From assembly GCA_963708295.1 (NCBI GenBank), contig CAVPSJ010000004.1:576001-640000 (forward strand): 64,000 nucleotides of DNA, read 5' to 3'. The notes beneath the pieces are model-generated. The model had not been told where the DNA came from, made no database searches, and saw only the letters and a list, made by a program, of their open reading frames with translations. The position numbers and the translations under genes were made by a program. Shown one piece after another: positions 37,264-62,848 of the stretch (position 1 is the stretch's first letter; each line of letters starts with the position of its first letter). Source of the stretch: an uncultured delta proteobacterium. Its GTDB lineage: Bacteria; Desulfobacterota; BSN033; UBA1163.

Positions 37264-39435
37264 TTACTTTATACTTATAATTCCCCCTTTCGCTATTTCT
37301 CCCTTTCTCCTGGCTATCTGTTTGATGGTCTCGTCCAGTCTGCGATTGGCGACTTCAAGTAATTCTTCAGTGTACTCCAAATTATGAACTCCCTTACCGT
37401 TCTTTGCCGAATAGTAATTGAATTCTGCCTCTCCATACAGTTTTCGAAAAACAAACGTATGGCCTCCGCTGAGATCTATCCGATCGATCTCATCCTTGAC
37501 TCTCGCCAATTTAGGTTCCAATTTTTTCAACAAGTCTTCAGACGTCGTCTTCCATCGGACCGCCATCTCACCGTAACTCTGGTCATGACACTCGATGCAA
37601 CGTTTCTTGATGGCCTCAAAGGTGTCCTTCTTCTTCGCCACGATGCCCCGATGACAATCAACGCATTCGACCACACCCAGCTTATTACTCGGTCTCTCCT
37701 TGACGCCAATCCCCCCTTTTCCTTGAACGAGCTTTTTGACTGCGGCATGACAATCATCACATTTCACTTTCTTAATCCCTTTCCCATGATGGCATTCCGC
37801 GCAATTTTTCATGATCGTTTTACCGTGATTTTCCCGTGGAGAATGGCAATCTGAGCACTTCTGCCCGTTACCCGCAATGTGGGTTTGATGGGAGAATTTG
37901 GTGTCATTAAACGAAACGGTACGCTTCTCGATTCCGACATGGCACAGCGTGGTACAGGTCATGCGGGTTTTAGACTCCTGGGGGGTATAGTCTTTATCGA
38001 TAATCGCCAGAACCCGCTCCGTTCTATTGTTCGCTGCATTGAGAAGTTTAAAAGCGTATTCAACATTGTGAACGCCCTGCCCCAAGAGGACAAAGCTGTA
38101 ATTGTGACGGGCTTCATTGAGGAGGTTTTGGGCCTTTTTGAACAGGGTTCCTCCCCCGCTGGTCTTTTCAAACTCAGATAATACTTTCTGGACATTGGAA
38201 ATTCTCTGATTCGTCTCATTTTCCGCCTTGGAAAGAAGCGATTTCCACTGTTTCAACGTATCATCAAATCCCTCCCCGTGGCAGTCGACGCAGGCTTCAC
38301 CGATCACCCGTTCCGCAAATCGAGTGGTGTGGAGTGCGGCCTGACTTTCTTCAGCTCTTCGATGGCAGGCGATACAGTCGACATTGGCCGTAAACATGAG
38401 ACTGGGAGAGTCCGGAACGCCGATCCCTCCCCTCCCCCGGTAAAAATCTCTGGGTCCCAAATGCATTTCCTTGCTGTGGCACCTATCACAATTGGATGGA
38501 GCGTGGGCAAGGGTAGGGATCTCGCCAATTTCATGCCGTAGGGGCGTGTGGCAACTGGAGCATTCGATCTTGTGGTCAGTCACATGTTTCTTATGCATGA
38601 GCTCAGATGTAAATTTCGTACTCAGAAGGACCGGTTCATTGTGACATTCCATGCACTTTCCCTCAGGGACATGGCCGTCTCCCTGTACAACGCTGAGATG
38701 GCACTTCTCGCAAGCGACCCCTCTGGCAATATATTTCTTGTGATTGAAGCTCCAACCCTTGACCCGGATATCCCCTTTCGGCTCCACGTGGCAGGAGGTA
38801 CATCCTCCGACGGCGCATGAAAGGCATTCATCCTCTCCCTTGGGACCGGCCTTGTAATAGTGGCAGATGAAGCAATTGATTTCATGAACCGTCAGGTGTT
38901 TCCCTTGAACGAGCTGAGCATGACAGCTGGCACAGCGGAGTTTCATTCCCCTTCTCAGCTCACCCAAATGTTTTCCGTGTGAGAAGGCCACGTTTTTGTA
39001 AATCATATTTCCCTTCAGATCATCAACCTGATGGCAGCCCTTCTGCAGACAGCTTGCATCGCTGATTTGGGCGTGAGGCGTACTCGGCCTTTTTCCCGAA
39101 AGGAAATAGGCCAGGGATACCTGGCCGTCGACCCACTTCCCCTTCATATGATTCAAAAACCCAGGCTCATAGTGGCATTTCGTGCAAGCGACTTGCTTGT
39201 GGCTGGAAGTCCTCCATGACTCCATATAGGCACTCATTTGATGACAAACTCCACAGAAGGTGGAGGACTCGGTAAATCTGAGAAGACCTCCCACGACGAT
39301 CAGAAAAACAACGATGCAAAATACCAGAAAGATCTTGATTGCCTTGAAGTGGGCTCGAGTGCCCCTCCTCGCCTCGTTGAAAAAATCGATCCAAAAGATC
39401 TTGACCAAATCGTAAAGATTCTTTATAGTTCCCAT
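37264..39435 (-). CDS. Large membrane-anchored multiheme cytochrome c with NapC/NirT-like N-terminus
   Basis: 16 CxxCH motifs plus CLQKGCH and CTTLCH; N-terminal TM helix followed by STFCGVCH..SWRTSSH. Confidence 0.92.
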   Translation of the reverse strand: MGTIKNLYDLVKIFWIDFFNEARRGTRAHFKAIKIFLVFCIVVFLIVVGGLLRFTESSTFCGVCHQMSAYMESWRTSSHKQVACTKCHYEPGFLNHMKGKWVDGQVSLAYFLSGKRPSTPHAQISDASCLQKGCHQVDDLKGNMIYKNVAFSHGKHLGELRRGMKLRCASCHAQLVQGKHLTVHEINCFICHYYKAGPKGEDECLSCAVGGCTSCHVEPKGDIRVKGWSFNHKKYIARGVACEKCHLSVVQGDGHVPEGKCMECHNEPVLLSTKFTSELMHKKHVTDHKIECSSCHTPLRHEIGEIPTLAHAPSNCDRCHSKEMHLGPRDFYRGRGGIGVPDSPSLMFTANVDCIACHRRAEESQAALHTTRFAERVIGEACVDCHGEGFDDTLKQWKSLLSKAENETNQRISNVQKVLSEFEKTSGGGTLFKKAQNLLNEARHNYSFVLLGQGVHNVEYAFKLLNAANNRTERVLAIIDKDYTPQESKTRMTCTTLCHVGIEKRTVSFNDTKFSHQTHIAGNGQKCSDCHSPRENHGKTIMKNCAECHHGKGIKKVKCDDCHAAVKKLVQGKGGIGVKERPSNKLGVVECVDCHRGIVAKKKDTFEAIKKRCIECHDQSYGEMAVRWKTTSEDLLKKLEPKLARVKDEIDRIDLSGGHTFVFRKLYGEAEFNYYSAKNGKGVHNLEYTEELLEVANRRLDETIKQIARRKGEIAKGGIISIK

Positions 39436-39615
39436 CGTAAGGCCTCCACCCAAAGCTCAATTTTACAACCTTTTAAAATTATTGCAAGGGTACCCCCCCT
39501 CTTCAAACTCTGTGATCGAGGAGAAGGAGGGGACCGAGAGAAGCGGGTCAGATTGCCCGGACGGATCTCACTCATCTGACCTCCGTCATCTTCTCGGAAA
39601 ATAGGAAACGGCTGA

Positions 39616-40263
39616 ATGCATCGATTGCGTACAGTGAACCGAAAATGGATCTTCCTCTCAATCGCCTCTTTATGTTTCCTTCTCTGGCTTGGAAAGCTCG
39701 ACTCCCTTCTGGCTCAAGTCGGAGAAAATCCCATGGACCGGAGAGAGGAGAAAATAAGGGATTTTCGAGAAAAGAGAGATCGGTTTTTCAGGGAAGACCC
39801 TCATTCCCCTTTGAGGGAGATTGACCGAAAAAAATTCAAAGGCCTTTCTTACTACCCGATCGATCTCAAATATGCCATGGTCGGGGCAATTGAAAGATAT
39901 CCTACCGAACCCAAACCCAGGTACGTCACGCTTGCCACGAATAAGGTGACGGGAAGAAAATATGTAGAATATGGCCGCTTTGTGTTTAAGTGGGAGGGGA
40001 AAGCATCCTCCCTCCAGATCTTTCGGCCTTTGGGGGGCGGGGAACTTTTTCTTCCTTTTAAAGATAAGACTTCGGAGACAGAGACCTATCCCGGAGGGCG
40101 CTATCTCTCGATCGAACCCATACCTGGAGGGAACGTACTGATCGATTTCAATCGGGCCTATAATCCGTTCTGCCAGTTCAATGAGAAATATATCTGCCCT
40201 TATGCCCCCGAGGAGAATTGGCTCGGCATCGACATTCGGGCAGGAGAGAAGAGATTTCGATGA
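39616..40263 (+). CDS. DUF1684 family protein with N-terminal signal/TM
   Basis: LFLPFKDKTS..TYPGGRYL, IDFNRAYNPFC..CP. Confidence 0.9.
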   Translation: MHRLRTVNRKWIFLSIASLCFLLWLGKLDSLLAQVGENPMDRREEKIRDFREKRDRFFREDPHSPLREIDRKKFKGLSYYPIDLKYAMVGAIERYPTEPKPRYVTLATNKVTGRKYVEYGRFVFKWEGKASSLQIFRPLGGGELFLPFKDKTSETETYPGGRYLSIEPIPGGNVLIDFNRAYNPFCQFNEKYICPYAPEENWLGIDIRAGEKRFR

Positions 40264-40288
40264 CGACGGCTGCACAAAGGAGATGAAT

Positions 40289-41881
40289 ATGATTCCATTG
40301 AAATTCGCAAGGGCCTTGATGCTTGGCGTTGCCAGTTTGATTTTTATTCTGTCTGTGCCTTCTCTCTCTTTCTCATCTCCGAGGGCTCAGTTAAGCATCC
40401 TCTATACGAATGATGTGATGGGTGAGGTCGAGCCCTGTGGGTGATTCCGAAACCCTCTTGGCGGTGTCGCCAAGAAAGCGACTCTGATCTCCCAGATCAA
40501 AATGACAGGAAGAAAAATACTCCTCCTCGACACCGGGAATCTTTTTTTTCGAAAACCTCCTCCAACGGAAACCAAGCGCAGGGAGGCCCTTCTCCGTGTC
40601 GATCTCCTCGTCCACTCCTACAACGAAATGGGATACGATGTGGTCAATGTGGGGGAGAAAGATCTGATGATGGGGGTGAAGTTTCTCACCGAAGTGAGGC
40701 CGAAGGCGAAGTTTTCTCTTGTTTCTACCAATCTTGTGGACAAAAAAACTGGAAAGTGTATCTTTAAACCTTATGTCATCAAAGAGGTCGTCGGCCTGAA
40801 GGTTGCAATATTCGGCTTGCTGGACGATCAATTCAATCCAACCCTCCAGGAGAACGACCCGGCGTTAACCATCATCGACCCCCTCCCCGCGCTCAGGGCG
40901 GCGATGAAGGGCCTGAGAGAATATTGCGACCTCATGATCGTCCTCTCTCAATTGGGCGAATCGAAAGACAAAAAGTTAGCCAGACAAAATCGCGATATCG
41001 ATTTGATTCTAGGAGGAGGAGGGGAATCGAAAAAAGTGGTGATGGAAAGAGAGAATGGGACCGCCATTTACCGATTGGAGCCGAGGGGAGGATATTTGGG
41101 CCGGGTGGATTACTCCTTCAGCGATACGAAGAGACCCATTCAATTTACGATTTCCAGTGAACGGGAAGAGCTCGAGAAGAGATTGGAAAGGCTGATCTCT
41201 CATTCCATGCAAATGAAGATGGAGATGTCAAAATCAGGGAAGCAGGACAATATCAAGGTAAAGGAGCTGAGGTTCCTGGAATCGAAGCAGAAGGAACTGG
41301 AGAAAACCCTGATTGCCTTTGAAGATAAAAATTCTTACAGGCACATTGCGATCCCTGTGCAACCGGCCGTCACCGATGATCCAAGAATCACTAAAGAACT
41401 GGAAACTTATCGGACGGAATCGGCAAAACTCTATAAGCCAAAAGTGGTCGTCGAAGTTGGAAAGGATTTGCCGGAGAAAGAAATGATCGCCCGAATTCCC
41501 AAGACAAGCCCTTTTGCCGGAGCGATCTCGTGTAAGAGATGCCATGCGGTAAATTATAGAAATTGGTCAAAGACCAAACATGCCCAGGCTTCCCAGACGA
41601 TTGCCGCCTCCCCCAAATATGCCCAGGAGGAGTGCCTCATGTGTCACTCCACGGGCTATGGGAAGATCGGAGAGTATGCCGTCGTTTCAGACATCCCATT
41701 CTACCTTCAGGGGGTCCAGTGTGAGGCCTGTCATGGAGAAGGGAAGGGGCATCCGCAAGGGGGAAGGGTGGAGAGGAAAGTGACCCTGGGAGTCTGCCGA
41801 AACTGCCACACCAAAGATCAAAGCCCCACCTTTAATTATATCGCTTATCTTGAAAAGATCGGCTGCAGGGTCTCCGACTGA
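40289..41881 (+). CDS. Secreted UshA/5'-nucleotidase-like selenoprotein (CGU; Sec at UGA 40442-40444) fused to a tetraheme cytochrome c domain
   Basis: AAGGAG RBS, signal peptide, ILYTNDVMGEVEPCG-UGA-FRNPLGGVAKK in frame with ORF 40502-41881; SECIS-like hairpin 40456-40475; CKRCH, CLMCH, CEACH, CRNCH. Confidence 0.88.
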
Positions 41882-41941
41882 AGTTCGGAGTTCGGAGTCT
41901 TGAAATTTAATGCTCCGAACTACGAACTCTTACTCCGAACT
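41881..41941. repeat. Inverted heptamer repeat array (AGTTCGG / CCGAACT) between convergent genes
   Basis: AAGTTCGGAGTTCGGAGT ... GCTCCGAACTACGAACTCTTACTCCGAACT. Confidence 0.7.
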
Positions 41942-43911
41942 TAAACCAGGAACTCCCATGCAATCAGGAAGACGCAGAAAAGCCCGACGGCCAGCATTGC
42001 AAATCCCACCGTCGTTGAGAAGAGGTCTGTTCCCACACTGGGGTACTTATCCCGATAGGTCTCCAACGTCTTCTCCGCCAGCAGGCGATCATACTGTTCC
42101 TGCCTTTCCTCCACCAGTTCGTATTTCGGGAACCTTCCTGTAAAGATCACGGTATCGATCGGGAATTTCGAAGGTCGAAAATGGGTGTTGAAGAAATGGA
42201 CGGTGAAGATGAAGCCGGAAGCCAAAAGCGCCTCATCCGAGTGGACGATCGTGGCAATGTTGAGAATCCATCCGGGTAAAAAGATCGTGAAGAATTCTGG
42301 AAACCAGAGCATCAATCCCGAGAATCCGATAGCAAACATCCCCCAGAAGACGGCCAGAAAATCGAATTTCTCCCAATAGGTCCATCGGTCAAACCGGGGT
42401 TTCGGCCCTTTGTTAAAGAACCAGCGGATCATTCCGATGATGTCCTGAATGTCTTTCCAGCGAGGGCAGAGTGAATCCGGGCCGAAAAGCCTCTGCAATG
42501 GGTTGGGGTTTCCACGGATCTTCTTGAAGAAGAGGAAATAAAAGATGTAAGCGATGGTCGTTCCAAAGTAAGCAAAAGTGATGGCAGCACAGATGCGATG
42601 AATCAAGCCGGCCATCCGAGCCCCTCCTAGAAAATGCATCAGACCGCTGGCCCAGGGGGCATGAGCGAATTTCAGCGGGAGCCCGGTCAGGACAAGGCCA
42701 AGGAAAGTCACCATCATCGTGAAATGGAGGACGATTTCAAAAAAGCTAAATCGGCGATAGATATGACCTGCCTCATCCGGTCTCACATGGAGCGAAAAGA
42801 AGACTCCCTTGGCCCTCAACTCCCGCTTTTCCCAGAAGTCTTTCCGCCACCAGAGAAAAGTGTGAAACCAGAACACTCCAAAGACAGAAACAAGGAGGCT
42901 TGTCATCAGGACAAAGGTTCCGTAGAGCACCGGCTCTCTTTCCGGATCTTTATGGGTCGCATGGGCAATCCATTGCACGAAGTTGGCATTGGCCCCTGTG
43001 TGGCATTTGCCGCAGGTCTCCACGCGCCGCTTCTCCGAGATGAGGGATTTCGGGTTATTCGGAGGCAGAATGTTGTGAAACCCGTGGCAGTCAGCACAAC
43101 CTGCCACCAATCTGGGGTAGCCCAGATGCTCCACTTTTCCATGATAGCTTTCGTAATAGGTCTGGGTAGCGATGAGGAAAACCTTGTTTCTCTTCATCAT
43201 CTCTTTGTCCGCGTGACACTTCTGGCAGACTTCCGTATGGAATTCCTTCCGGAATTCCACCGCTTTGGGTTCATCCCCCTTTAACAAAGGAATCTTATGG
43301 AGGCCGTGGCAATCGCTGCAGGCGGCTGAATCCGGATTTCCGTCGACGACAGCTTGTCCGTGAACGCTTTGAGAATAGCCATCATCCGAGTGGCAGGTCG
43401 TACATGTCTGGATCACTCGAACTTTGTCCCCCTTCCACGGGGTCAATTCATGGATGTCTTTATGGCAGTCTTTGCATTGAATGTCGTTGATGAAATGGGC
43501 GCTTGCATAATGTTCCACCCCTTCTCTTTTATGACATCGATGACAACTCACAGGTTCAGTATGGATTCTTCCCCCTTTCGCCTTCCCATGGGCTTTGACA
43601 TCCGTGATATCATAGTGGCAGCTGTTACAGGAGTTGGCCCCATGAACGGACTGGGCAAATTTCCTCTCGCTGATTTTACTGTGACAGCCCAAACATTCAG
43701 AATTGTCAATGCACTCGTAGCAATACTCCCGGCCCTTCGCGACAAACTTCTCCGCTTTCTTAGGCGGCTCAGAGGGTTTGGTCACCCCTGGGGGCTTAAC
43801 ACTCTCTTTATCGGGAGCAGGCGATGCCGCCCACGACACCCCGAAGCTCCAAAGGAACGAGGCAGAGAGAACGAGACAAACAAGGATTGATTTATTAACT
43901 TTGGATTCCAT
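41941..43911 (-). CDS. CbcL-like protein: periplasmic multiheme c domain fused to an integral-membrane cytochrome b (FdnI-like) domain
   Basis: Signal peptide, 9 CxxCH motifs, then TM domain with LHF..LTGLPLKF, HR, YWEKFDFLAVFWG, HSDEALLA..HFFNTH. Confidence 0.88.
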   Translation of the reverse strand: MESKVNKSILVCLVLSASFLWSFGVSWAASPAPDKESVKPPGVTKPSEPPKKAEKFVAKGREYCYECIDNSECLGCHSKISERKFAQSVHGANSCNSCHYDITDVKAHGKAKGGRIHTEPVSCHRCHKREGVEHYASAHFINDIQCKDCHKDIHELTPWKGDKVRVIQTCTTCHSDDGYSQSVHGQAVVDGNPDSAACSDCHGLHKIPLLKGDEPKAVEFRKEFHTEVCQKCHADKEMMKRNKVFLIATQTYYESYHGKVEHLGYPRLVAGCADCHGFHNILPPNNPKSLISEKRRVETCGKCHTGANANFVQWIAHATHKDPEREPVLYGTFVLMTSLLVSVFGVFWFHTFLWWRKDFWEKRELRAKGVFFSLHVRPDEAGHIYRRFSFFEIVLHFTMMVTFLGLVLTGLPLKFAHAPWASGLMHFLGGARMAGLIHRICAAITFAYFGTTIAYIFYFLFFKKIRGNPNPLQRLFGPDSLCPRWKDIQDIIGMIRWFFNKGPKPRFDRWTYWEKFDFLAVFWGMFAIGFSGLMLWFPEFFTIFLPGWILNIATIVHSDEALLASGFIFTVHFFNTHFRPSKFPIDTVIFTGRFPKYELVEERQEQYDRLLAEKTLETYRDKYPSVGTDLFSTTVGFAMLAVGLFCVFLIAWEFLV

Positions 43912-44024
43912 TAGCCCCCCAGAAACAGAAAGCCGAATCACCCGGCCCTTCAAGTAAGTACGAGGGTTATTCCGGCGAGACTCAAAGAAAATTCAATTTT
44001 TTTTGGATTCTAAACGAGGGTAAA

Positions 44025-48065: not shown

Positions 48066-49241
48066 ATGAAAAGAGACATCATCAAAAAAGGGATGTTTAT
48101 TATTCTTCTCCTCTTATCAGGCTCATTGGCCATCGCCGACACCTTTCCTGAAGATCCATCAAGAGGGAAGCAGCTTTTTGTAAAAAAAGGGTGTGTGAAA
48201 TGTCATGACGTGGAAGGGCGGGGAAGCAAAATCGGCCCTGATCTCGTTACGAAAGACATGGGCGGCACGCCCTTGGATCTGGCTGCAAGACTATGGAACC
48301 ATACGCCTTCCATGGTCTTGGGCATGGCGGGGACAAGCATGGTCAAACCTGCCTTGACGGGGCAGGAATTTAACGACCTTTCGGTTTACCTCTACCTCCT
48401 CAGATTCTCCGACGGGCCGGGGAATCCGGTGCGGGGAAGATCCATATTTACCGAAAAAGGTTGTCATTTGTGCCATCCTTTTGCAGGTAAAGGGAAACAG
48501 GATCAAATCGGATTCGACGAATTCCCGCGGAATATTTCTCCAATCTTCCTAAGCAAGGGGATCTGGAACCACAGTTTAGACATGATCGCCCGCATGGCTC
48601 AAATCGGAATGAAGTGGCCTAAGTTTAGAGAAACAGAGATGATCGACCTCTTAGCATACATTAAGGCCAAGGCAAAAGGAGCCGACGATCCATCTTTCTT
48701 TAAACCCGGCAACCCGAAAGAGGGAAAACAGCTCTTCAATGCAAAGGGGTGTGATAAATGCCATACCATCCGAGGCGAGGGGGGAGAGGGAGGAGTGGAC
48801 CTCGGCAGAGAGGCTCAAACTTTCCGCACCTCATTCACCGAGATCGCGTCGAGTATGTGGAATAAGGGGCCTGCGATTTTGGCCAAGATGGCTCAGGCGC
48901 AGTCGGGCATTCCCAAGCTGACCTCGAAAGAGACGGCAGACCTTTTCTCTTTTCTTTACTTCATCCCTTTCACCGACGAGCCGGGGAATATCACGAACGG
49001 AAAAATATTATTTTCGGAAATGAAATGTGCACAATGTCATGGGCAAGACCGGATGCGCCGCAAACTGTTATACATCGACCAGTCCAAATATCAGGCCACG
49101 TCCAAAACCAACCTCGTCGCCAGTATCTGGAATCACCGGCTGGTCATCATGAACGCCGCCAACGAAGAACAACTTCCATGGCCGCTCATGGACAATAGAG
49201 AGATGGCAGACCTCGTCGAATTTATTCTCGCTCCCCAATGA
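48066..49241 (+). CDS. Secreted cytochrome c with four monoheme-type repeats
   Basis: Signal peptide; CVKCH, CHLCH, CDKCH, CAQCH, each followed by a WNH/WNK repeat. Confidence 0.9.
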   Translation: MKRDIIKKGMFIILLLLSGSLAIADTFPEDPSRGKQLFVKKGCVKCHDVEGRGSKIGPDLVTKDMGGTPLDLAARLWNHTPSMVLGMAGTSMVKPALTGQEFNDLSVYLYLLRFSDGPGNPVRGRSIFTEKGCHLCHPFAGKGKQDQIGFDEFPRNISPIFLSKGIWNHSLDMIARMAQIGMKWPKFRETEMIDLLAYIKAKAKGADDPSFFKPGNPKEGKQLFNAKGCDKCHTIRGEGGEGGVDLGREAQTFRTSFTEIASSMWNKGPAILAKMAQAQSGIPKLTSKETADLFSFLYFIPFTDEPGNITNGKILFSEMKCAQCHGQDRMRRKLLYIDQSKYQATSKTNLVASIWNHRLVIMNAANEEQLPWPLMDNREMADLVEFILAPQ

Positions 49242-56297: not shown

Positions 56298-56594
56298 ATG
56301 GAAACAGAGACGACGAAAATCGGCAAGCGCGGGACGATCGTCATTCCGGCTGGTCTCCGCCGTAAGTACGGGTTCGAAGAAGGGTCCCTCGTGGTCGCAG
56401 AAGCTCAGGAGCAGGGCATCCTCTTACGACCGGCAGTGATGCTGCCACTCGAAAGGTATACTCCTCAACGAAAGGCCGAATTTCTCCTGAATAATGCGGT
56501 CACGCGTGAAGACTATGCCTGGGCCCTTAAAGAGGTTAAGAAGTTAGGAATTGATCCAAAAACCATTCCTCATGACAAGCCAAAGAGTCGATGA
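56298..56594 (+). CDS. AbrB/MazE-like antitoxin
   Basis: KIGKRGTIVIPAGLRRKYG; ATGA-coupled to a PIN gene. Confidence 0.88.
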   Translation: METETTKIGKRGTIVIPAGLRRKYGFEEGSLVVAEAQEQGILLRPAVMLPLERYTPQRKAEFLLNNAVTREDYAWALKEVKKLGIDPKTIPHDKPKSR

Positions 56595-57016
56595 CCGTTG
56601 ACCGGATCTTTCTCGATGCGAACATCTTATTCTCAGTCGCCTATGGAAGCCCGGGTCTGAGCCTTTTGTGGCAATCTGTCCGACAAAAAAGATGCATGCT
56701 CTTTGCCTCCAATTTTGTGGTTGAGGAAGCAAAGCGCAACCTCTCTGATCCCGAACAGAAGAAAAGGCTGGAGGAATATCTATCCGAGGTGCGGATCGTA
56801 CCCGAAGCCGATCCCACGCTCCCCTGCCCTATTGAATTGCCGGAGAAAGATCGACCCGTGCTAATGGCTGCCGTATTAAATAAAGCGGATTATCTGCTGA
56901 CAGGCGACTCGACCCATTTTGGAAAATATTTCGGACAAACGGTCAACGGCGTAAAGATCTGCCGCCCTCGAGACTACCTTTCTAAACCCCTTCGTAAGAA
57001 GAAATTTGTGTCCTGA
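56591..57016 (+). CDS. PIN-domain toxin
   Basis: IFLDANILFS, EEAKRNL, KDRPVL, LLTGD..HF. Confidence 0.88.
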   Translation: MTVDRIFLDANILFSVAYGSPGLSLLWQSVRQKRCMLFASNFVVEEAKRNLSDPEQKKRLEEYLSEVRIVPEADPTLPCPIELPEKDRPVLMAAVLNKADYLLTGDSTHFGKYFGQTVNGVKICRPRDYLSKPLRKKKFVS

Positions 57017-59949: not shown

Positions 59950-60968
59950 ATGAGAAGAAATCTTCTGGTCATCTTCACAATCTTTTTCGCCCTGATGGGC
60001 CCGGCATACGGAGAGCAATCTGCGGAAGACATCCTGAAAGCGATTGTCAGGATAAAATCGGTTGTTCCCGAAAGCGCGTTCACCGCCCGCACGCTCGGGA
60101 CCGAACGGGAAGGAAATGGTGTGGTCATCGATTCGAAGGGGCATATCCTGACGATCGGCTATCTCATCGTCGAAGCCGAGACTTTGGAGGTCACGACCGG
60201 AGAAGGAAAAACGATCAGCGCCTCTTTTGTCGGCTACGACCATGACACGGGTTTTGGTCTCCTGAAGGCAAACAAGCCTCTTGGCATAACGCCGATGAAA
60301 CTGGGGAAGTCCTCAGAGGTAAAACAGGAGATCCCATTCTGATGGCGGGCCATGGTGGAACGGAATCCGTTCAGGCGGGCCGGGTCATCGCCCGCAAAGA
60401 ATTCGCAGGCTACTGGGAGTATCTTCTTGAGGACGCGATCTATACGGCGCCCGCTCATACAGGCTTTGGAGGGGCGGCGCTGATCGCCCCGGACGGAAAG
60501 CTCGTGGGAATCGGATCTCTCCTCACTCAGGTCGTCATTCCGGGATTCGGCTCTATTGCCTGTAACATTTCGGTCCCCATCGACCTTCTCCATCCGATTC
60601 TGGCAGACCTGATCGCCAAGGGACGAACGAGTGCAGCTCCCCGGCCCTGGCTGGGTCTCAATGTCGAAGAGGCCCACGGTCGCGTCTTCGTCGTCCGTGT
60701 CACCGCAGGGGGTCCTGCGGAGAAAGCCGAGTTGGAGGCGGGAGATATGGTTCTGACCGTGAAAGGAGAGGAGGTGAAAGGCCTCGCTGACTTTTACCGC
60801 AAGGTATGGGCCCTTGGCCATGCAGGAGTCGAGGTCCCCCTCGGTATTCTGAGAGGAACCAGGATCCGTGATATCCCCGTGAAGTCTATCGATCGCAATC
60901 AGCTGCTACGGCAGAAGCTTACGAAGAACTTATGGGATGCCCCGGGCGTTCTCCCTAACGCCCCGTAA
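59950..60968 (+). pseudogene. S1C (HtrA-like) protease-fold protein with PDZ domain, split by a 1-nt frameshift near 60327
   Basis: Signal peptide, GNGVVID..ILTIGYL, EFAGYWEYLL, RPWLGL, GPAEKA; adding one G gives VKQGDPILMAG. Confidence 0.75.
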
Positions 60969-61018
60969 CAAGTTAGGTCCGACTGGGATCAAGATCAATT
61001 TCAATCATAACGCGAACG

Positions 61019-61729
61019 CTATTCTGGGGTCCAGAAGGGACCCGCCTTGCCCAACTTTTTTAACGATAAGAACAGTTCGGATGCGTATTCCTTCACTCGG
61101 GAGAGATAGTCCGGCTCTAGACGATTCCTGAGCAGGGGTCCGCTGAAGACTTGCGCCCAGTTGGATAACGGCATGATGGACTCAGCTGAGACGGAATCAT
61201 AAAGCGACCAATTTTTCACATGTTCTTCCGACCGGAAGAGGTTCATGCGGCTTCAAGCCAAACCCCAGGATACTTCTCCCGTCAAAATCTTGGCGAACGG
61301 GATATTCATGTGTCCCACGGTCGTCGTTGGATTGACTTCCAGGATATCCTCGTCCCGCATGCGGACGAGGATGGGTTGCCCACAATCCAGGCAACGGGTG
61401 TCGATACGGATCTCAGTACCAGGGAAAAGCCAGCGCACGGCCAGCACTTCGAGTCCTCACTGGCCGTACCACTTTTGGTCCCCCTTTATAGTCACAAGAT
61501 AATGGGTCGGTACATTAGAAAACGGCGCCCAGGACTCGACGTAATCTGTGTCTTTAACAAACCAGCAGGCTATGGAGGAGTCGGCTGCCTTATGCTGTAG
61601 CTGCCTGGCCTCTTCGGGTCGCAACCCGAGAGTTGCTGCAAGTTCGGTATAGTGCGGTGCCCGCCCAGTCTTCACAAAATGCTCCACAACAGCAGTGTAA
61701 GCTCGTTGCACCAATGTGGTTTCTTCCAT
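61019..61729 (-). CDS. MerB (organomercurial lyase)-like protein with two predicted selenocysteines (UGA at 61457-61459 and 61253-61255)
   Basis: AAGGAGG RBS and ATG 61729; three track ORFs form one frame: APFSNVPT..WYGQ-U-GLE..RCLDCGQPI..LA-U-SRMNLFRSEEH; hairpin after each UGA. Confidence 0.85.
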
Positions 61730-61968
61730 ATCATTTCCTCCTTTCTGGTGTTCACCTATCGCCACTCCTATTTGCAATATACACCCTATAGAGACTCTTT
61801 GGAAGTGAAAGTTTTCAGGAAGGAGAATTTGGCCACCTCCTCTCAAGGGGTTGCCTTAAGCCACGTTCCGCAATTTGGATACGGTAACTTTTTTATAGAT
61901 GGCCTAAATCCCTTTTAGGATTCTTATAATTTTATGGATGTCCCCCTTTGAAAGGTTTCTCCACTTCT

Positions 61969-62392
61969 TCAGGAAATATGTTCTAAGAATTCTACAGGAG
62001 TGACCATCCGGCAGGAAATTCCATTTTCTTTAAGGTCCTCCTGAGAAATGCTTAGAAGATCTTTGTCCCCGGTAATCAAAAAATCCGCTTTCGCCTCCTT
62101 GCAGAGTGAAAGATAATGGTCATCCTTCGCATCCCTTGATAAAACCACCTGGGTCGATACAGAAATACGCATCGATAGACTTAACAATTGTTGGATTCTT
62201 CTCCTGTACAAATAGAATTTGTTCTTTTGTAAGTTTTTTCGAAAGTGCTGAAATAACTTCTTGAAGCTCTCTTTCGATGGGTTGGGAGAGATAGAATTCA
62301 TGGTCCTCCAGGGCTCGAACGACTGCTTCGAGAGGCTTTCCCCCGAAAGCAGCTGAAATGATCACGTTGGCGTCAACGACAATCTTAGCCAT
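61969..62392 (-). pseudogene. PIN-domain toxin with a 1-nt frameshift near 62200
   Basis: IVVDANVIISA in one frame; RDAKDDHYL, LITGDKDLL in another. Confidence 0.8.
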
Positions 62393-62618
62393 AGATCTTC
62401 TTTCTGGCTCGGTCGAGTGCCTTCAGTGCCTCTTTCTTTGAAACCCCTGCTTCGCTTAGAACCCTTCCAATTTCCAAAAGGATGATCTCCGGGCTGTTCT
62501 TCTCGACAGGGGTAAGACGGGCAATGGGTCTTTTCCGCTTCATCACCACGATCTCATTCCCTTCGTTCAAATACTTCACGACACCCTCTTTGAATTCCCT
62601 GACACCCACGAATTTCAT
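62385..62618 (-). CDS. Phd/YefM-family antitoxin
   Basis: MKFVGVREFK..GNEIVVMKRKRPIARL; GGAGG RBS. Confidence 0.85.
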   Translation of the reverse strand: MKFVGVREFKEGVVKYLNEGNEIVVMKRKRPIARLTPVEKNSPEIILLEIGRVLSEAGVSKKEALKALDRARKKIYG

Positions 62619-62848
62619 CTCACTCACCTCCGGAAATAATGTTACCACAAATGTGGGAATAATACAAAGGGTCTCCGAAGGGATCAACCCCACGACTCAA
62701 GGACTGAATAATCAGCCGACGTTTCTCCCATCCCCCGACTTTGTTGTGTTTCCAAACTCAAGGATAAAGATTTGGCCCCATTTCGCTTACGCCCCCCTGT
62801 TCTATTCCATGGAAGTAAAAATAGATCAGTGGGGCAATTCTTCAATCG

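Follow-up and report, generated by a model that had tools for sequence, protein, structure and literature searches.

A MerB-like gene of an uncultured delta proteobacterium predicted to encode selenocysteine at both metal-ligand positions

We report a MerB-like gene whose two in-frame UGA codons are very probably both decoded as selenocysteine (Sec), so that its product would be a double selenoprotein with Sec at the positions of the two metal-binding cysteines of the organomercurial lyase MerB. The gene lies on the reverse strand of a 64,000-nucleotide stretch from an uncultured delta proteobacterium (contig CAVPSJ010000004.1, positions 576,001 to 640,000), referred to here as the window. The initial annotation of this DNA had proposed a di-selenocysteine enzyme, and the conservation of the TGA codons, the hairpins that follow them and the Sec machinery of the genome all support that proposal. 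The fuller reading, in which the double selenoprotein also works by an organomercurial-lyase-type mechanism, appears to us moderately likely.

A single reading frame spans three small ORFs

Three minus-strand ORFs (61457..61846, 61253..61447, and 61019..61246) had been joined into a single frame in the initial annotation, and the ORF list matches this exactly. As had also been claimed, the frame is interrupted solely by UGA at codons 91 and 159; translation with TGA as Sec (U) yields 236 residues and a stop, and contains both of the described contexts, WYGQ-U-GLE and WGLA-U-SRMNLFRSEEH. The AAGGAGG motif proposed as the ribosome-binding site is found ahead of the ATG (Table 1). Both gene boundaries are consistent with 26 aligned homologues. 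The analysis shows this frame to be one functional gene, predicted to encode a cytosolic protein of about 26 kDa with a complete MerB fold.

Table 1. Features of the MerB-like gene, in window coordinates
Feature	Position	Strand	Detail
MerB-like double selenoprotein CDS (predicted)	61019..61729	-	236 codons; ATG 61729-61727, TAG 61021-61019
Shine-Dalgarno-like AAGGAGG	61737..61743	-	7 nt 5' of the ATG; read directly
UGA codon 91 (predicted Sec)	61457..61459	-	aligns with MerB Cys96
GAA codon 94 (Glu)	61448..61450	-	opposite Asp99, the proton donor of MerB
UGA codon 159 (predicted Sec)	61253..61255	-	aligns with MerB Cys159
MerB catalytic domain PF03243	61163..61522	-	residues 70-189, across both UGAs
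C113-L-D-C116 motif	61382..61393	-	C113 aligns with MerB structural Cys117; C116 family-specific
SECIS-like hairpin 1	61424..61450	-	core GCUGGC-CGUGC-GCUGGC at 61445-61429 plus three outer pairs
SECIS-like hairpin 2	61219..61247	-	core 6-bp stem UCUUCC-GGUC-GGAAGA at 61239-61224

A hint of transcription comes from RNA-library contigs (4 runs) that belong to close relatives and bridge both UGA sites. Being contigs, they report cover and bridging rather than levels; differences are given for the 40 best-supported of 186, and variants at the TGA sites are possible. A scan for promoters and terminators returned one of each against 1.2 expected and flagged the stem of hairpin 1 as terminator-like.

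The protein has the MerB fold and aligns its UGA codons with the catalytic cysteines

The window protein matches the Pfam MerB family PF03243 with 65.3 bits (gathering threshold 27), and its AF2 model reaches a pLDDT of 95.0 and a pTM of 0.89. With this model, Foldseek returned only MerB and MerB2 chains among its best 11 matches (E-values from 1e-10 to 3e-7), whereas the 12th match had an E-value of 0.2. VIA likewise placed MerB2 at Z 17.4 (rmsd 3.6 over 193 aligned residues) and MerB at Z 16.2, with 191-193 residues aligned in the two comparisons, whereas the highest-scoring unrelated chain reached only Z 4.4. The MerB relationship proposed from the letters alone was thus recovered by HMM and structure searches alike. 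HMMER alignment to the PDB chains pairs U91 with C96, E94 with D99, and U159 with C159, which bears out the earlier placement of the UGA codons at MerB Cys96 and Cys159 and of Glu in the place of Asp99. Instead of the MerB signature Cys96/Asp99/Cys159/Cys117, the window protein carries the aligned and chemically analogous residues Sec91/Glu94/Sec159/Cys113.

Glu94 is invariant in our alignment A1, and Glu occupies this position in 80 of 80 metagenome loci. C113 and C116 are each at least 90% conserved in the same alignment; the motif that they frame is missing in a small subclade, which reads DLATAE. Invariant residues encoded 3' of the TGA codons include M162, F165, S167, S196, R203, and S210, and both protein conservation and the MerB fold extend to about residue 210.

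Both TGA codons are conserved and the first exchanges with cysteine

Among 174 homologous DNA loci at which both sites could be read, 165 have TGA at both sites and nine combine a Cys codon at site 1 with TGA at site 2; TGG accounts for none. In the larger set of 185 loci that bear the site 1 motif, site 1 is TGA in 175 and TGC or TGT in 10, these two being the only sense codons seen there. Site 2 is TGA in 174/174 loci with both sites readable, and the sole departure among all loci with a readable site 2 is a GTA (L025). TGG was found neither at site 1 (185 loci) nor at site 2 (29 + 78 + 74 readable loci). The two TGAs fall in the same alignment columns in 29 of 30 loci.

The same picture emerges from each sample. 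The 80 metagenome loci comprise 71 with TGA/TGA, five with a Cys codon and TGA, and four cut by contig ends; the 80 loci from named genomes comprise 70 with TGA/TGA, four with TGC/TGA, three with an unreadable second site, and three without the motif. A sample of 401 genomes of the phylum contained 44 close places, spread over 39 genomes; 42 of these places have two TGA codons, one has three, and one has a single TGA plus a TAA. On the tree, Cys at site 1 arose by at least six changes nested within Sec/Sec clades, and one database protein (P0014) is a Cys/Cys homologue. The homologues, whose codons the initial annotation had proposed to examine, either have TGA twice or replace the first one by a Cys codon, and TGG never occurs in their DNA. 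Sec/Sec is the rule in this family and Cys/Sec a rare alternative.

Conserved SECIS-like hairpins lie 3' of both UGA codons

A bacterial SECIS element is a stem-loop shortly 3' of the UGA with a conserved G/U in its loop; the spacing was judged by the general rule for such elements and by comparison with fdhF. The loop G-U of hairpin 1 lies +19/+20 nt past its UGA, and the hairpins of the genome's own selD show the same UGA spacing as those of the window gene. Pairing of hairpin 1 is complete in 29/29 aligned sequences, and the changes seen among homologues are one-sided only. The hairpin is intact at 175 of 175 UGA-type loci but at just 5 of 10 Cys-type loci. A hairpin behind the first UGA had been proposed and is indeed present; the span given for it, 61408-61456, however, is the minimum-energy fold of the single sequence, and the conserved element is smaller and in another register.

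The second proposed hairpin, CAUG..UCUUCC-GGUC-GGAAGA..CAUG, was found as described. Its core is 97.5% paired with compensatory changes at two pairs, and its covariation score exceeds that of 500/500 shuffles. The family consensus has a seventh pair, whose place in the window (61240 with 61223) is taken by a C-A mismatch, and the outer CAUG/CAUG helix is weakly conserved (74% paired). Pairing survives changes that alter the protein, namely L to C plus E to A (L038, L042). The Arg-Ser encoded within the hairpin is CGG-UCG in 28 of 29 sequences, the remaining one (L035) having CAG, i.e., Gln.

Folding energies of the single sequences were no better than those of shuffles for either hairpin (z +0.70 for hairpin 1 and -0.82 for hairpin 2). 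Since single-sequence folding gave no signal above shuffles, we relied on comparative tests, and the evidence for the hairpins is comparative, not energetic. Rfam contains no family matching 60900-61900 at E <= 1. The alignments show for each UGA an in-frame, predicted bacterial SECIS hairpin of its own, roughly 20 nt 3' of the codon.

All four selA/selB/selC/selD functions were found in the genome: SelA (532 bits), SelB (73 bits), tRNA-Sec (81 bits), and two copies of SelD. These factors would insert Sec at UGA 91 and UGA 159. Elsewhere TGA is a normal stop, terminating 14 of the 27 long ORFs of the window.

Public entries are cut at the UGA codons or carry tryptophan

Public annotations of family members end at the UGAs, for example in 158-residue "organomercurial lyase" entries. 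In 12 database proteins, with identities of up to 89%, both sites are Trp (W/W). One further entry has S at site 1 and C at site 2 (P0003), and two have S at site 1 and W at site 2 after a 5-residue insertion (P0007, P0010). In a search for the DNA behind the W/W, S/C, and S/W entries, with TGA translated as W, none of 16 database proteins matched a collected DNA locus exactly. In the nearest DNA, at most 95.7% identical, TGA always stands opposite the W residues, and the source contigs are short metagenome pieces of 0.9-2.4 kb; for these two reasons the W/W entries are most likely gene-calling artefacts in which TGA was read as Trp. Tryptophan at the two sites, which the initial annotation had named as evidence against its own reading, is thus seen in database proteins, whereas the homologous DNA has no TGG. 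A systematic database artefact comes to light here, with entries either cut at UGA or bearing a probably mistranslated Trp at the catalytic sites.

The W/W proteins are what speaks for reading TGA as Trp or another standard residue, or for errors of assembly. We consider this extremely improbable, given the lack of TGG at every readable site, the use of TGA as a stop in the window, the TGA facing W in the nearest DNA of short contigs, the fact that the only sense codons at site 1 encode Cys, and the alignment of both sites with the catalytic cysteines of MerB. The split of the frame under genetic code table 11 would fit a pseudogene, or three small ORFs that have nothing to do with one another, but the identical two stops, and no others, recur across phyla at 41-92% identity, and a single Pfam domain runs across both; this reading, too, has next to nothing in its favour. 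Slightly less remote, though still very improbable, is that one UGA or none is recoded, that a truncated product of 90 or 158 residues is made, and that the downstream frame is conserved for some other reason. It would agree with the public annotations and with the cost of a double Sec insertion. However, the 90-residue product would have no catalytic domain and the 158-residue product no second ligand, conservation and fold continue far beyond either end, and a separate conserved hairpin accompanies either UGA, the first of the two decaying when UGA is replaced by Cys. The double selenoprotein remains the reading that we carry forward.

The family is large, spans several phyla, and has no conserved neighbourhood

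Among 185,579 species, each represented by a single genome, we confirmed 443 stretches encoding relatives, and at least 583 more such stretches in metagenomes. The phyla represented include Thermodesulfobacteriota, Nitrospirota, Chloroflexota, Actinomycetota, and others. The window gene belongs to a large, multi-phylum family that had not been filed before and is not the oddity of one genome. No NCBIfam model (June 2026) accepts the window protein, and in the table of a 2026 inventory of 119 prokaryotic selenoprotein families, the MerB fold is represented by the single-Sec SaoL alone (PMC13188914 Table 1). The freely available full-text literature that we searched, at the level of main texts and with Haft and Gwadz as the preprint, describes no double-Sec MerB-like protein.

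The window had been described as free of merA, merR, and merTP, and a Pfam sweep of its 62 ORFs agrees, with no MerA, MerR, MerT, or MerP. The best match to the MerA model in the whole genome reaches 323 bits, short of the cut-off of 454. Genes up to about 9 kb away encode RmuC, a PDZ protein, PIN toxins, a pseudouridine synthase, and hypothetical proteins. When the 685 ORFs that flank the gene in the window and its homologues at 77 loci were clustered, they revealed no functional partner; the recurrent clusters were generic ones only, i.e., histidine kinases (12/77 loci) and ABC ATPases (7 loci). The stand-alone form stressed in the initial annotation is real in that there is no mer operon, but it is not unusual for merB, as 906 of 1795 merB genomes are reported to be without MerA (PMC8261052).

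HgcA is encoded in 19 of the 39 carriers and in 100 of the 362 non-carriers (odds ratio 2.5, Fisher p 0.009, with the genomes being related to one another). Because of this relatedness, and because half of the carriers have no HgcA, we take the co-occurrence as a modest, weak hint.

A putative organomercurial-lyase-type mechanism and its alternatives

By analogy with MerB, the two selenolates (U91 and U159) would act as ligands for the metal in an organometallic substrate, while Glu94 would protonate the leaving carbon, so that the carbon-metal bond is cleaved. The products would be a hydrocarbon and a metal held by two Se, and the gene would act outside a mer operon. Methyl- or another organomercury, cleaved by protonolysis, would be the most likely substrate, a tentative assignment that falls somewhat short of an even bet. 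The chemistry has a precedent in selone mimics of MerB, which are reported to cleave Hg-C bonds and to do so faster than their sulfur analogues (PMC11639659, PMC10114901). Against a lyase role, Hg(II) should be very tightly held by two Se, and the genome has no MerA above the cut-off to take it over. Asp is also replaced by Glu, and no gene neighbourhood hints at a substrate.

The same double selenoprotein might have another role, either on a different carbon-metal(loid) bond (Sn, Pb, As, Se, or Co) or as a chaperone, trap, or sensor that holds a soft metal (Hg, Cu, Cd, or Ag) in its bis-selenolate site. We judge this unlikely, though by far the weightiest of the competing readings. The missing mer genes, the MerA score under the cut-off, and the variable neighbourhood would all suit it, as would the absence of HgcA from half of the carriers, the constant use of Glu for Asp, and the additional conserved Cys116 beside Cys113. 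In the preprint of Haft and Gwadz, Sec in the metal site is held to make the organomercurial specificity of SaoL uncertain, and MerB is noted to bind other metals as well. Moreover, the Cu(I)-binding NosL is said to be the sole other protein structurally similar to MerB (PMC10114901). On the other hand, a purely binding role would leave the invariant proton-donor carboxylate needless, the entire MerB fold has been retained, and no neighbouring gene points to an alternative substrate. With these points weighed, we keep to the lyase-type reading at the strength given at the outset.

Implications for methylmercury turnover

It may be, though we rate it improbable, that this family, perhaps together with the second family described below, is the missing mer-independent enzyme of methylmercury (MeHg) degradation in microbes of anoxic peat, wetlands, and sediments. 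The routes and organisms of MeHg degradation in anoxic habitats are described as still being worked out (PMC10114901). If this proposal held, a Se-dependent C-Hg lyase would exist in syntrophs, metal reducers, Nitrospirota, Chloroflexota, and Actinomycetota, in many cases together with HgcA; one and the same cell could both produce and break down MeHg, and net MeHg would be governed by the supply of selenium. Mercury surveys would then have missed the family owing to the truncated or mistranslated state of its genes in databases. The signature filter of the merB survey of Christakis et al. consists of Cys96, Asp99, Cys159, and Cys117 (PMC8261052), and surveys that filter on Cys96/Cys159 or start from database proteins drop or mis-score double-Sec genes. 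This loss touches the very anoxic habitats in which MeHg arises. Irrespective of the substrate, a MerB-type site with two selenolate metal ligands would be a rare kind of catalytic centre. Desulforhabdus sp. TSK, whose locus (L137) has TGA at both sites, is a carrier not labelled as a MAG and makes the question accessible to experiment.

Comparison with known systems

The closest described counterpart is SaoL (NF040728; bioRxiv 10.1101/2022.07.06.499078), which, according to that preprint, shares with the window protein the MerB fold PF03243 and a Sec at the equivalent of MerB Cys159, and likewise occurs in anaerobes, outside a mer operon, and in database copies truncated at UGA. SaoL is described there as having a single Sec, located in a CU dipeptide, with Cys99, Asp102, and Sec162 at the three positions, whereas in the window protein both ligand positions are predicted to be Sec (within QUG and AUS), the donor is Glu, and there is no CU. 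SaoL is further reported to mark a conserved nine-gene SAO neighbourhood; the window family has no conserved neighbours. The earlier claim that the two are distinct holds up: the window protein scores 40.8 bits with the SaoL model (cut-off 140), the best score in the genome scan is 34.7, and both the CU dipeptide and the SAO neighbourhood are absent. The Sao-specific NCBIfam models covered three ORFs adjacent to the gene and, from other loci, two neighbour proteins.

MbdU, known here from its listing (NF045648; PMC13188914 Table 1), similarly has two Sec residues proposed as metal ligands, but it is unrelated, has CU motifs, and is not matched by the window protein in NCBIfam at E <= 1. The genome of the window encodes a second MerB-like family, family B (G000:C16:8216-8698), which also has TGA at both ligand positions, is conserved in 26 of the 401 sampled genomes, and stays under every NCBIfam cut-off. 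It forms a separate lineage that P0001 does not retrieve at E <= 1e-5, and it keeps the Asp donor (YAAUAAD), with a third TGA in some members. In the genome of the window, a frame change in a run of T disrupts the copy.

With MerB and MerB2 (PDB 3F0P, 3F0O, 1S6L, 5C17) the window protein shares the whole fold including the N-terminal helical part, over 182-193 residues, and all three catalytic positions align at an overall identity of 16-20%. Its scores remain far below the cut-offs of the canonical MerB models of NCBIfam (21.6 bits versus 200 for NF033555 and 27.8 versus 193 for NF009710). The window protein differs from MerB in the absence of the neighbouring Cys160, in about 25 extra C-terminal residues, in the added Cys116, in having no mer operon, and above all in its predicted triad, which is Sec/Glu/Sec where MerB has Cys/Asp/Cys.

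Two in-frame TGA codons lie within a MerB fold

Translation of the minus strand revealed a single frame of 236 codons whose sole interruptions are TGA codons 91 and 159. Table 11 splits this frame into three ORFs, exactly those that the initial annotation had joined into one gene, and the UGA contexts it had read, WYGQ-U-GLE and WGLA-U-SRMNLFRSEEH (U, selenocysteine), recur in our translation. The Pfam MerB domain covers residues 70-189, including both TGAs (65.3 bits; cut-off 27). Aligning the protein with PDB chains by HMMER puts U91 at Cys96 of MerB, E94 at Asp99, U159 at Cys159 and C113 at Cys117, confirming that both UGAs fall at catalytic cysteines and that Glu takes the place of Asp99. 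An AlphaFold2 model from 27 family sequences (pLDDT 95.0, pTM 0.89) matched only MerB/MerB2 chains significantly in Foldseek (n = 11, E 1e-10 to 3e-7; next E 0.2). A second structural aligner agreed, with Z 17.4 against MerB2 over 193 aligned residues (rmsd 3.6) and Z 16.2 against MerB; the next unrelated chain reached Z 4.4. Since these alignments span model residues 1-210, the whole MerB fold is present, N-terminal helical part included, followed by a C-terminal extension of about 25 residues. The NCBIfam models for MerB (21.6 and 27.8 bits; cut-offs 200 and 193) and for SaoL, the single-Sec MerB-like protein of the SAO locus (40.8 bits; cut-off 140), reject the protein.

Features of the window (plain positions) and of other parts of its genome, G000 (contig:positions)
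Feature	Position	Strand	Remark
MerB-like gene	61019-61729	-	236 codons
Shine-Dalgarno-like AAGGAGG	61743-61737	-	ahead of the ATG start
Stop codon TAG		-	end of the 236-codon frame
Hairpin-1 stem, then UUUUCCC	61445-61429		terminator-like score
Hairpin regions of raised depth	61206-61269; 61430-61461
Neighbouring genes	within about 9 kb		RmuC; PDZ protein (convergent); two PIN toxins; pseudouridine synthase; hypotheticals
PIN-domain toxin genes	61969-62693		PIN toxin (TIGR00305) at 61969-62301, directly upstream of the MerB-like gene
PIN-domain toxin genes	56298-57016		overlapped by MazE/AbrB-type antitoxin
PIN-domain toxin genes	1836-2261
Multihaem c-type cytochrome cluster	37267-43953		729, 459 and 670 residues; one with cytochrome b561-like part
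Dihaem cytochrome c	48066-49238
selD (L013)	C17:66608-67531		one in-frame TGA
selD (L014)	C4:371872-372792		one in-frame TGA
HgcA gene (L206)	C4:16380-17369		full length
Family B copy (L002, L218)	C16:8216-8698		outside the window

Conservation of the TGA codons and selenocysteine machinery

TGA keeps its ordinary stop role, terminating 14 of the 27 window ORFs of at least 250 residues. All four of selA, selB, selC and selD are present in the genome, as SelA (532 bits), SelB (73 bits), tRNA-Sec (81 bits; gathering score 47) and two SelD genes, and in both selD genes a hairpin lies about 21 nt downstream of the TGA. Two TGA-bearing selD genes mark a selenoprotein-rich organism.

A search of 401 genomes of the phylum with the window protein (P0001) identified 39 genomes with a total of 44 close matches (E <= 5e-42), of which 42 have two TGAs, one has three, and one has a single TGA plus a TAA. 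Loci fetched from this search carry TGA in both alignment columns in 29 of 30 cases; the exception (L025) reads GTA at the second site, contains one more stop and is probably a broken copy. A metagenome scan matched at least 600 stretches, at least 583 of them confirmed relatives, and 80 of these loci read TGA/TGA (71) or TGC or TGT/TGA (5) or were cut by contig ends (4). A one-genome-per-species scan yielded 443 confirmed relatives; 80 of these read TGA/TGA (70) or TGC/TGA (4), had an unreadable second site (3) or lacked the motif (3). Because one of its two patterns required Cys at site 1, the species scan was not biased towards TGA. The 174 loci readable at both sites comprise 165 Sec/Sec and nine Cys/Sec forms, the phylum, metagenome and species sets sharing organisms and not being independent, and TGG was found at neither site among the DNA loci examined. 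The initial annotation had argued from one genome; its double-Sec reading holds, but for a widespread family rather than a singleton.

In a maximum-likelihood tree built quickly from 170 distinct rows, with SH-aLRT as its sole support measure, Cys at site 1 reflects at least six changes positioned inside Sec/Sec clades, the pattern expected of Sec/Cys interchange. One database protein, P0014, is a Cys/Cys homologue. Residues M162, F165, S167, S196, R203 and S210, downstream of both stops, are invariant, which argues that coding goes on past each TGA. We consider it very probable that the gene genuinely encodes a MerB-fold selenoprotein with two Sec residues.

In a small subclade (L019, L110, L191, L194), DLATAE stands in place of the CLDCG motif, so that neither Cys is present, and the second Sec is followed by E (N-U-ERMNLF); both TGAs are kept.

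SECIS-like hairpins follow both UGAs

A candidate SECIS follows each UGA, hairpin 1 after UGA-91 and hairpin 2 after UGA-159, with a loop-to-UGA distance of 19-22 nt, equal to the spacing in the genome's selD hairpins. Hairpin 2 is present as initially described. Its stem, CUCUUCC-GGUC-GGAAGAG, is 97.5% paired across 29 sequences, compared with only 38-57% in shifted registers, and compensatory double changes at two pairs give a covariation score above 500 of 500 shuffles. The compensatory changes in L038 and L042 are not silent (L to C with E to A), an indication of selection at the RNA level. CGG-UCG of this hairpin codes for Arg-Ser in 28 of the 29 sequences; L035 has CAG (Gln). The window copy has a C-A mismatch at the outermost core pair, leaving six pairs. 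For the outer CAUG/CAUG helix of the initial description, pairing is only 74%.

The hairpin-1 stem, GCUGGC-NGUNN-GCUGGC, is paired in 29/29 sequences, and RNAalifold recovers it independently. Its changes are one-sided only; L024 has G-C in place of two G-U pairs, which turns L into P and W into R. The span first assigned to it, 61408-61456, equals the single-sequence minimum-energy fold and includes the conserved element, but that element is narrower and in another register. Wherever site 1 is UGA (175 loci), the stem has 6/6 pairs and G-U at loop positions 2-3, whereas only five of the ten loci with Cys there retain six pairs, the rest having 5, 5, 4, 4 and 3. In one of the Cys loci, L190, pairing was lost by synonymous changes that leave the peptide unaltered. 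Such decay where the UGA is lost is what a SECIS predicts. In single-sequence folding neither hairpin was better than shuffles (z +0.70 and -0.82), and neither matched Rfam.

The hairpin-1 stem with its U-run scored as intrinsic-terminator-like inside the coding frame; the count of such sites is at chance level (1 found, 1.2 expected). Contig depth climbs several-fold at precisely these two hairpin segments, to 291-421 in metagenome set X1 (about 26-85 elsewhere) and about 1040-1100 in set X2, which fits contigs of many organisms stacking on nucleotide-conserved SECIS segments.

Tryptophan, serine and truncated database entries

Trp at these positions in homologues had been named initially as evidence against selenocysteine, and 12 database proteins, at most 89% identical to the window protein, do have W at both sites. 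Yet in code-4 tblastn against homologous loci every such W faces TGA in the nearest DNA (closest pair P0004 and L059, 95.7% identity). All these entries derive from 0.9-2.4 kb contigs of one metagenome source, and gene callers can pick a TGA=Trp model on short contigs. Given the short contigs, the W opposite TGA and a TGG count of zero in the DNA loci, the W/W entries are most likely gene-calling artefacts in which TGA was translated as Trp, judging from the DNA of their nearest relatives; none of 16 database proteins has an exact DNA match among the homologous loci. P0003 reads S/C; in P0007 and P0010 site 1 is S, and a 5-residue insertion precedes the W of site 2. Further entries, ending at residue 158 (some titled 'organomercurial lyase') or 90, are truncations at the UGAs. 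Some of the database proteins P0002-P0041 are fused to upstream ORFs.

Genomic context, distribution and mercury genes

The absence of mer genes was confirmed for the whole window, whose other contents include genes for phosphate transport, for amino-acid ABC transporters and for multihaem cytochromes. The stand-alone form, initially part of the claimed novelty, is real in this respect, but merB genes commonly stand alone. Among 77 homologous loci, the only flanking genes to recur are generic kinases and ABC ATPases. A 102-residue ORF ahead of the upstream TIGR00305 toxin may encode its antitoxin, and the cytochrome genes are in keeping with an anaerobe that respires metals or sulfur.

The contig also encodes, some 620 kb from the MerB-like gene, a full-length HgcA (454 bits; cut-off 275), so that the organism is putatively a mercury methylator. 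The matched part of HgcA contains no internal stop and accordingly showed no Sec at its N-terminal CU motif. Neither MerA nor SaoL scored above cut-off in the genome. In the phylum sample, HgcA occurs in 19 of 39 carriers of the MerB-like gene versus 100 of 362 non-carriers, a modest enrichment among genomes related to each other.

The closest homologues are from Syntrophobacter sp. SbD1 and a Syntrophobacteraceae MAG (92% identity), both Thermodesulfobacteriota, which makes Syntrophobacteraceae the probable family of the window's organism. Record titles name further Thermodesulfobacteriota (Syntrophales, Desulfobulbaceae, Geobacteraceae, Geomonas, Desulforhabdus sp. TSK, Syntrophorhabdus), Nitrospirota including Thermodesulfovibrionales, Chloroflexota (Anaerolineales, Dehalococcoidia), Actinomycetota (Acidimicrobiia, Gaiellaceae), Acidobacteria, Nitrospinota and two alphaproteobacterial MAGs. 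Five Nitrospirota copies (L129, L133, L135, L140, L145), 83-90% identical to the window protein, are nested among those of Thermodesulfobacteriota, which suggests either recent horizontal transfer or mis-binned MAG contigs. Near-identical sequence occurs in metagenome runs whose labels are wetland, peat, sediment, soil and groundwater. RNA-library contigs 88-96% like the window span UGA-91 (sets X15, records 11-14, and X17, record 18) and UGA-159 (X15, record 9), a hint of transcription in relatives, with the caveat that DNA can occur in RNA libraries.

Proposed mechanism

MerB is described as binding Hg through Cys96 and Cys159 and protonating the leaving carbon through Asp99 (bioRxiv 10.1101/2022.07.06.499078; PMC8261052). 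The corresponding triad is Sec/Glu/Sec and invariant in the family, and a conserved Cys116 is added beside the structural Cys113. By analogy, an organometal would have its metal bound by the two selenolates (U91, U159) and its leaving carbon protonated by Glu94. With mercury as the metal, Hg(II) would then have to leave both Se ligands in a genome where no MerA scores above cut-off. Selone mimics of MerB are reported to cleave Hg-C bonds faster than sulfur analogues (PMC11639659, PMC10114901), which makes bis-selenolate chemistry plausible. Haft and Gwadz doubted whether mercury is the physiological substrate of SaoL (bioRxiv 10.1101/2022.07.06.499078). For the double-Sec protein, organomercurial cleavage in vivo is a tentative assignment to which we give slightly less than even weight.

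Comparison with known systems

A second, unrelated double-TGA MerB-like family (family B), with 2-3 TGAs conserved, has members in 26 of the 401 genomes of the phylum and in the window's genome as well, so Sec doubling in the MerB fold arose or spread more than once. The latter copy reads YAAUAAD and NAFUNESLFFWSEEH, with Asp kept, and falls below all NCBIfam cut-offs; its N-terminal domain lies in another frame, the shift falling at a TTT run, which indicates a broken copy or an assembly indel.

A full-text search of openly readable main texts, with the SaoL paper in its preprint form, found SaoL as the sole MerB-fold selenoprotein in print. An inventory of prokaryotic selenoproteins published in May 2026, covering 119 families, enters in its Table 1 only SaoL for MerB, with one Sec (PMC13188914), and a 2022 review likewise gives single-Sec SaoL only. 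A large mer survey filters on Cys96, Asp99, Cys159 and Cys117, and its main text does not contain the word 'selenocysteine' (PMC8261052). A double-Sec MerB-like protein was thus not found in the literature covered, which is short of never described. SaoL differs in having a single Sec in a CU dipeptide, with Cys and Asp kept elsewhere, and in belonging to a nine-gene SAO locus, as set out by its authors (bioRxiv 10.1101/2022.07.06.499078). Fold, TGA conservation, hairpins and machinery support the original interpretation of a MerB-like enzyme with Sec at both catalytic Cys positions, and the family is a separate, widespread clade of the MerB superfamily with a bis-selenocysteine site.
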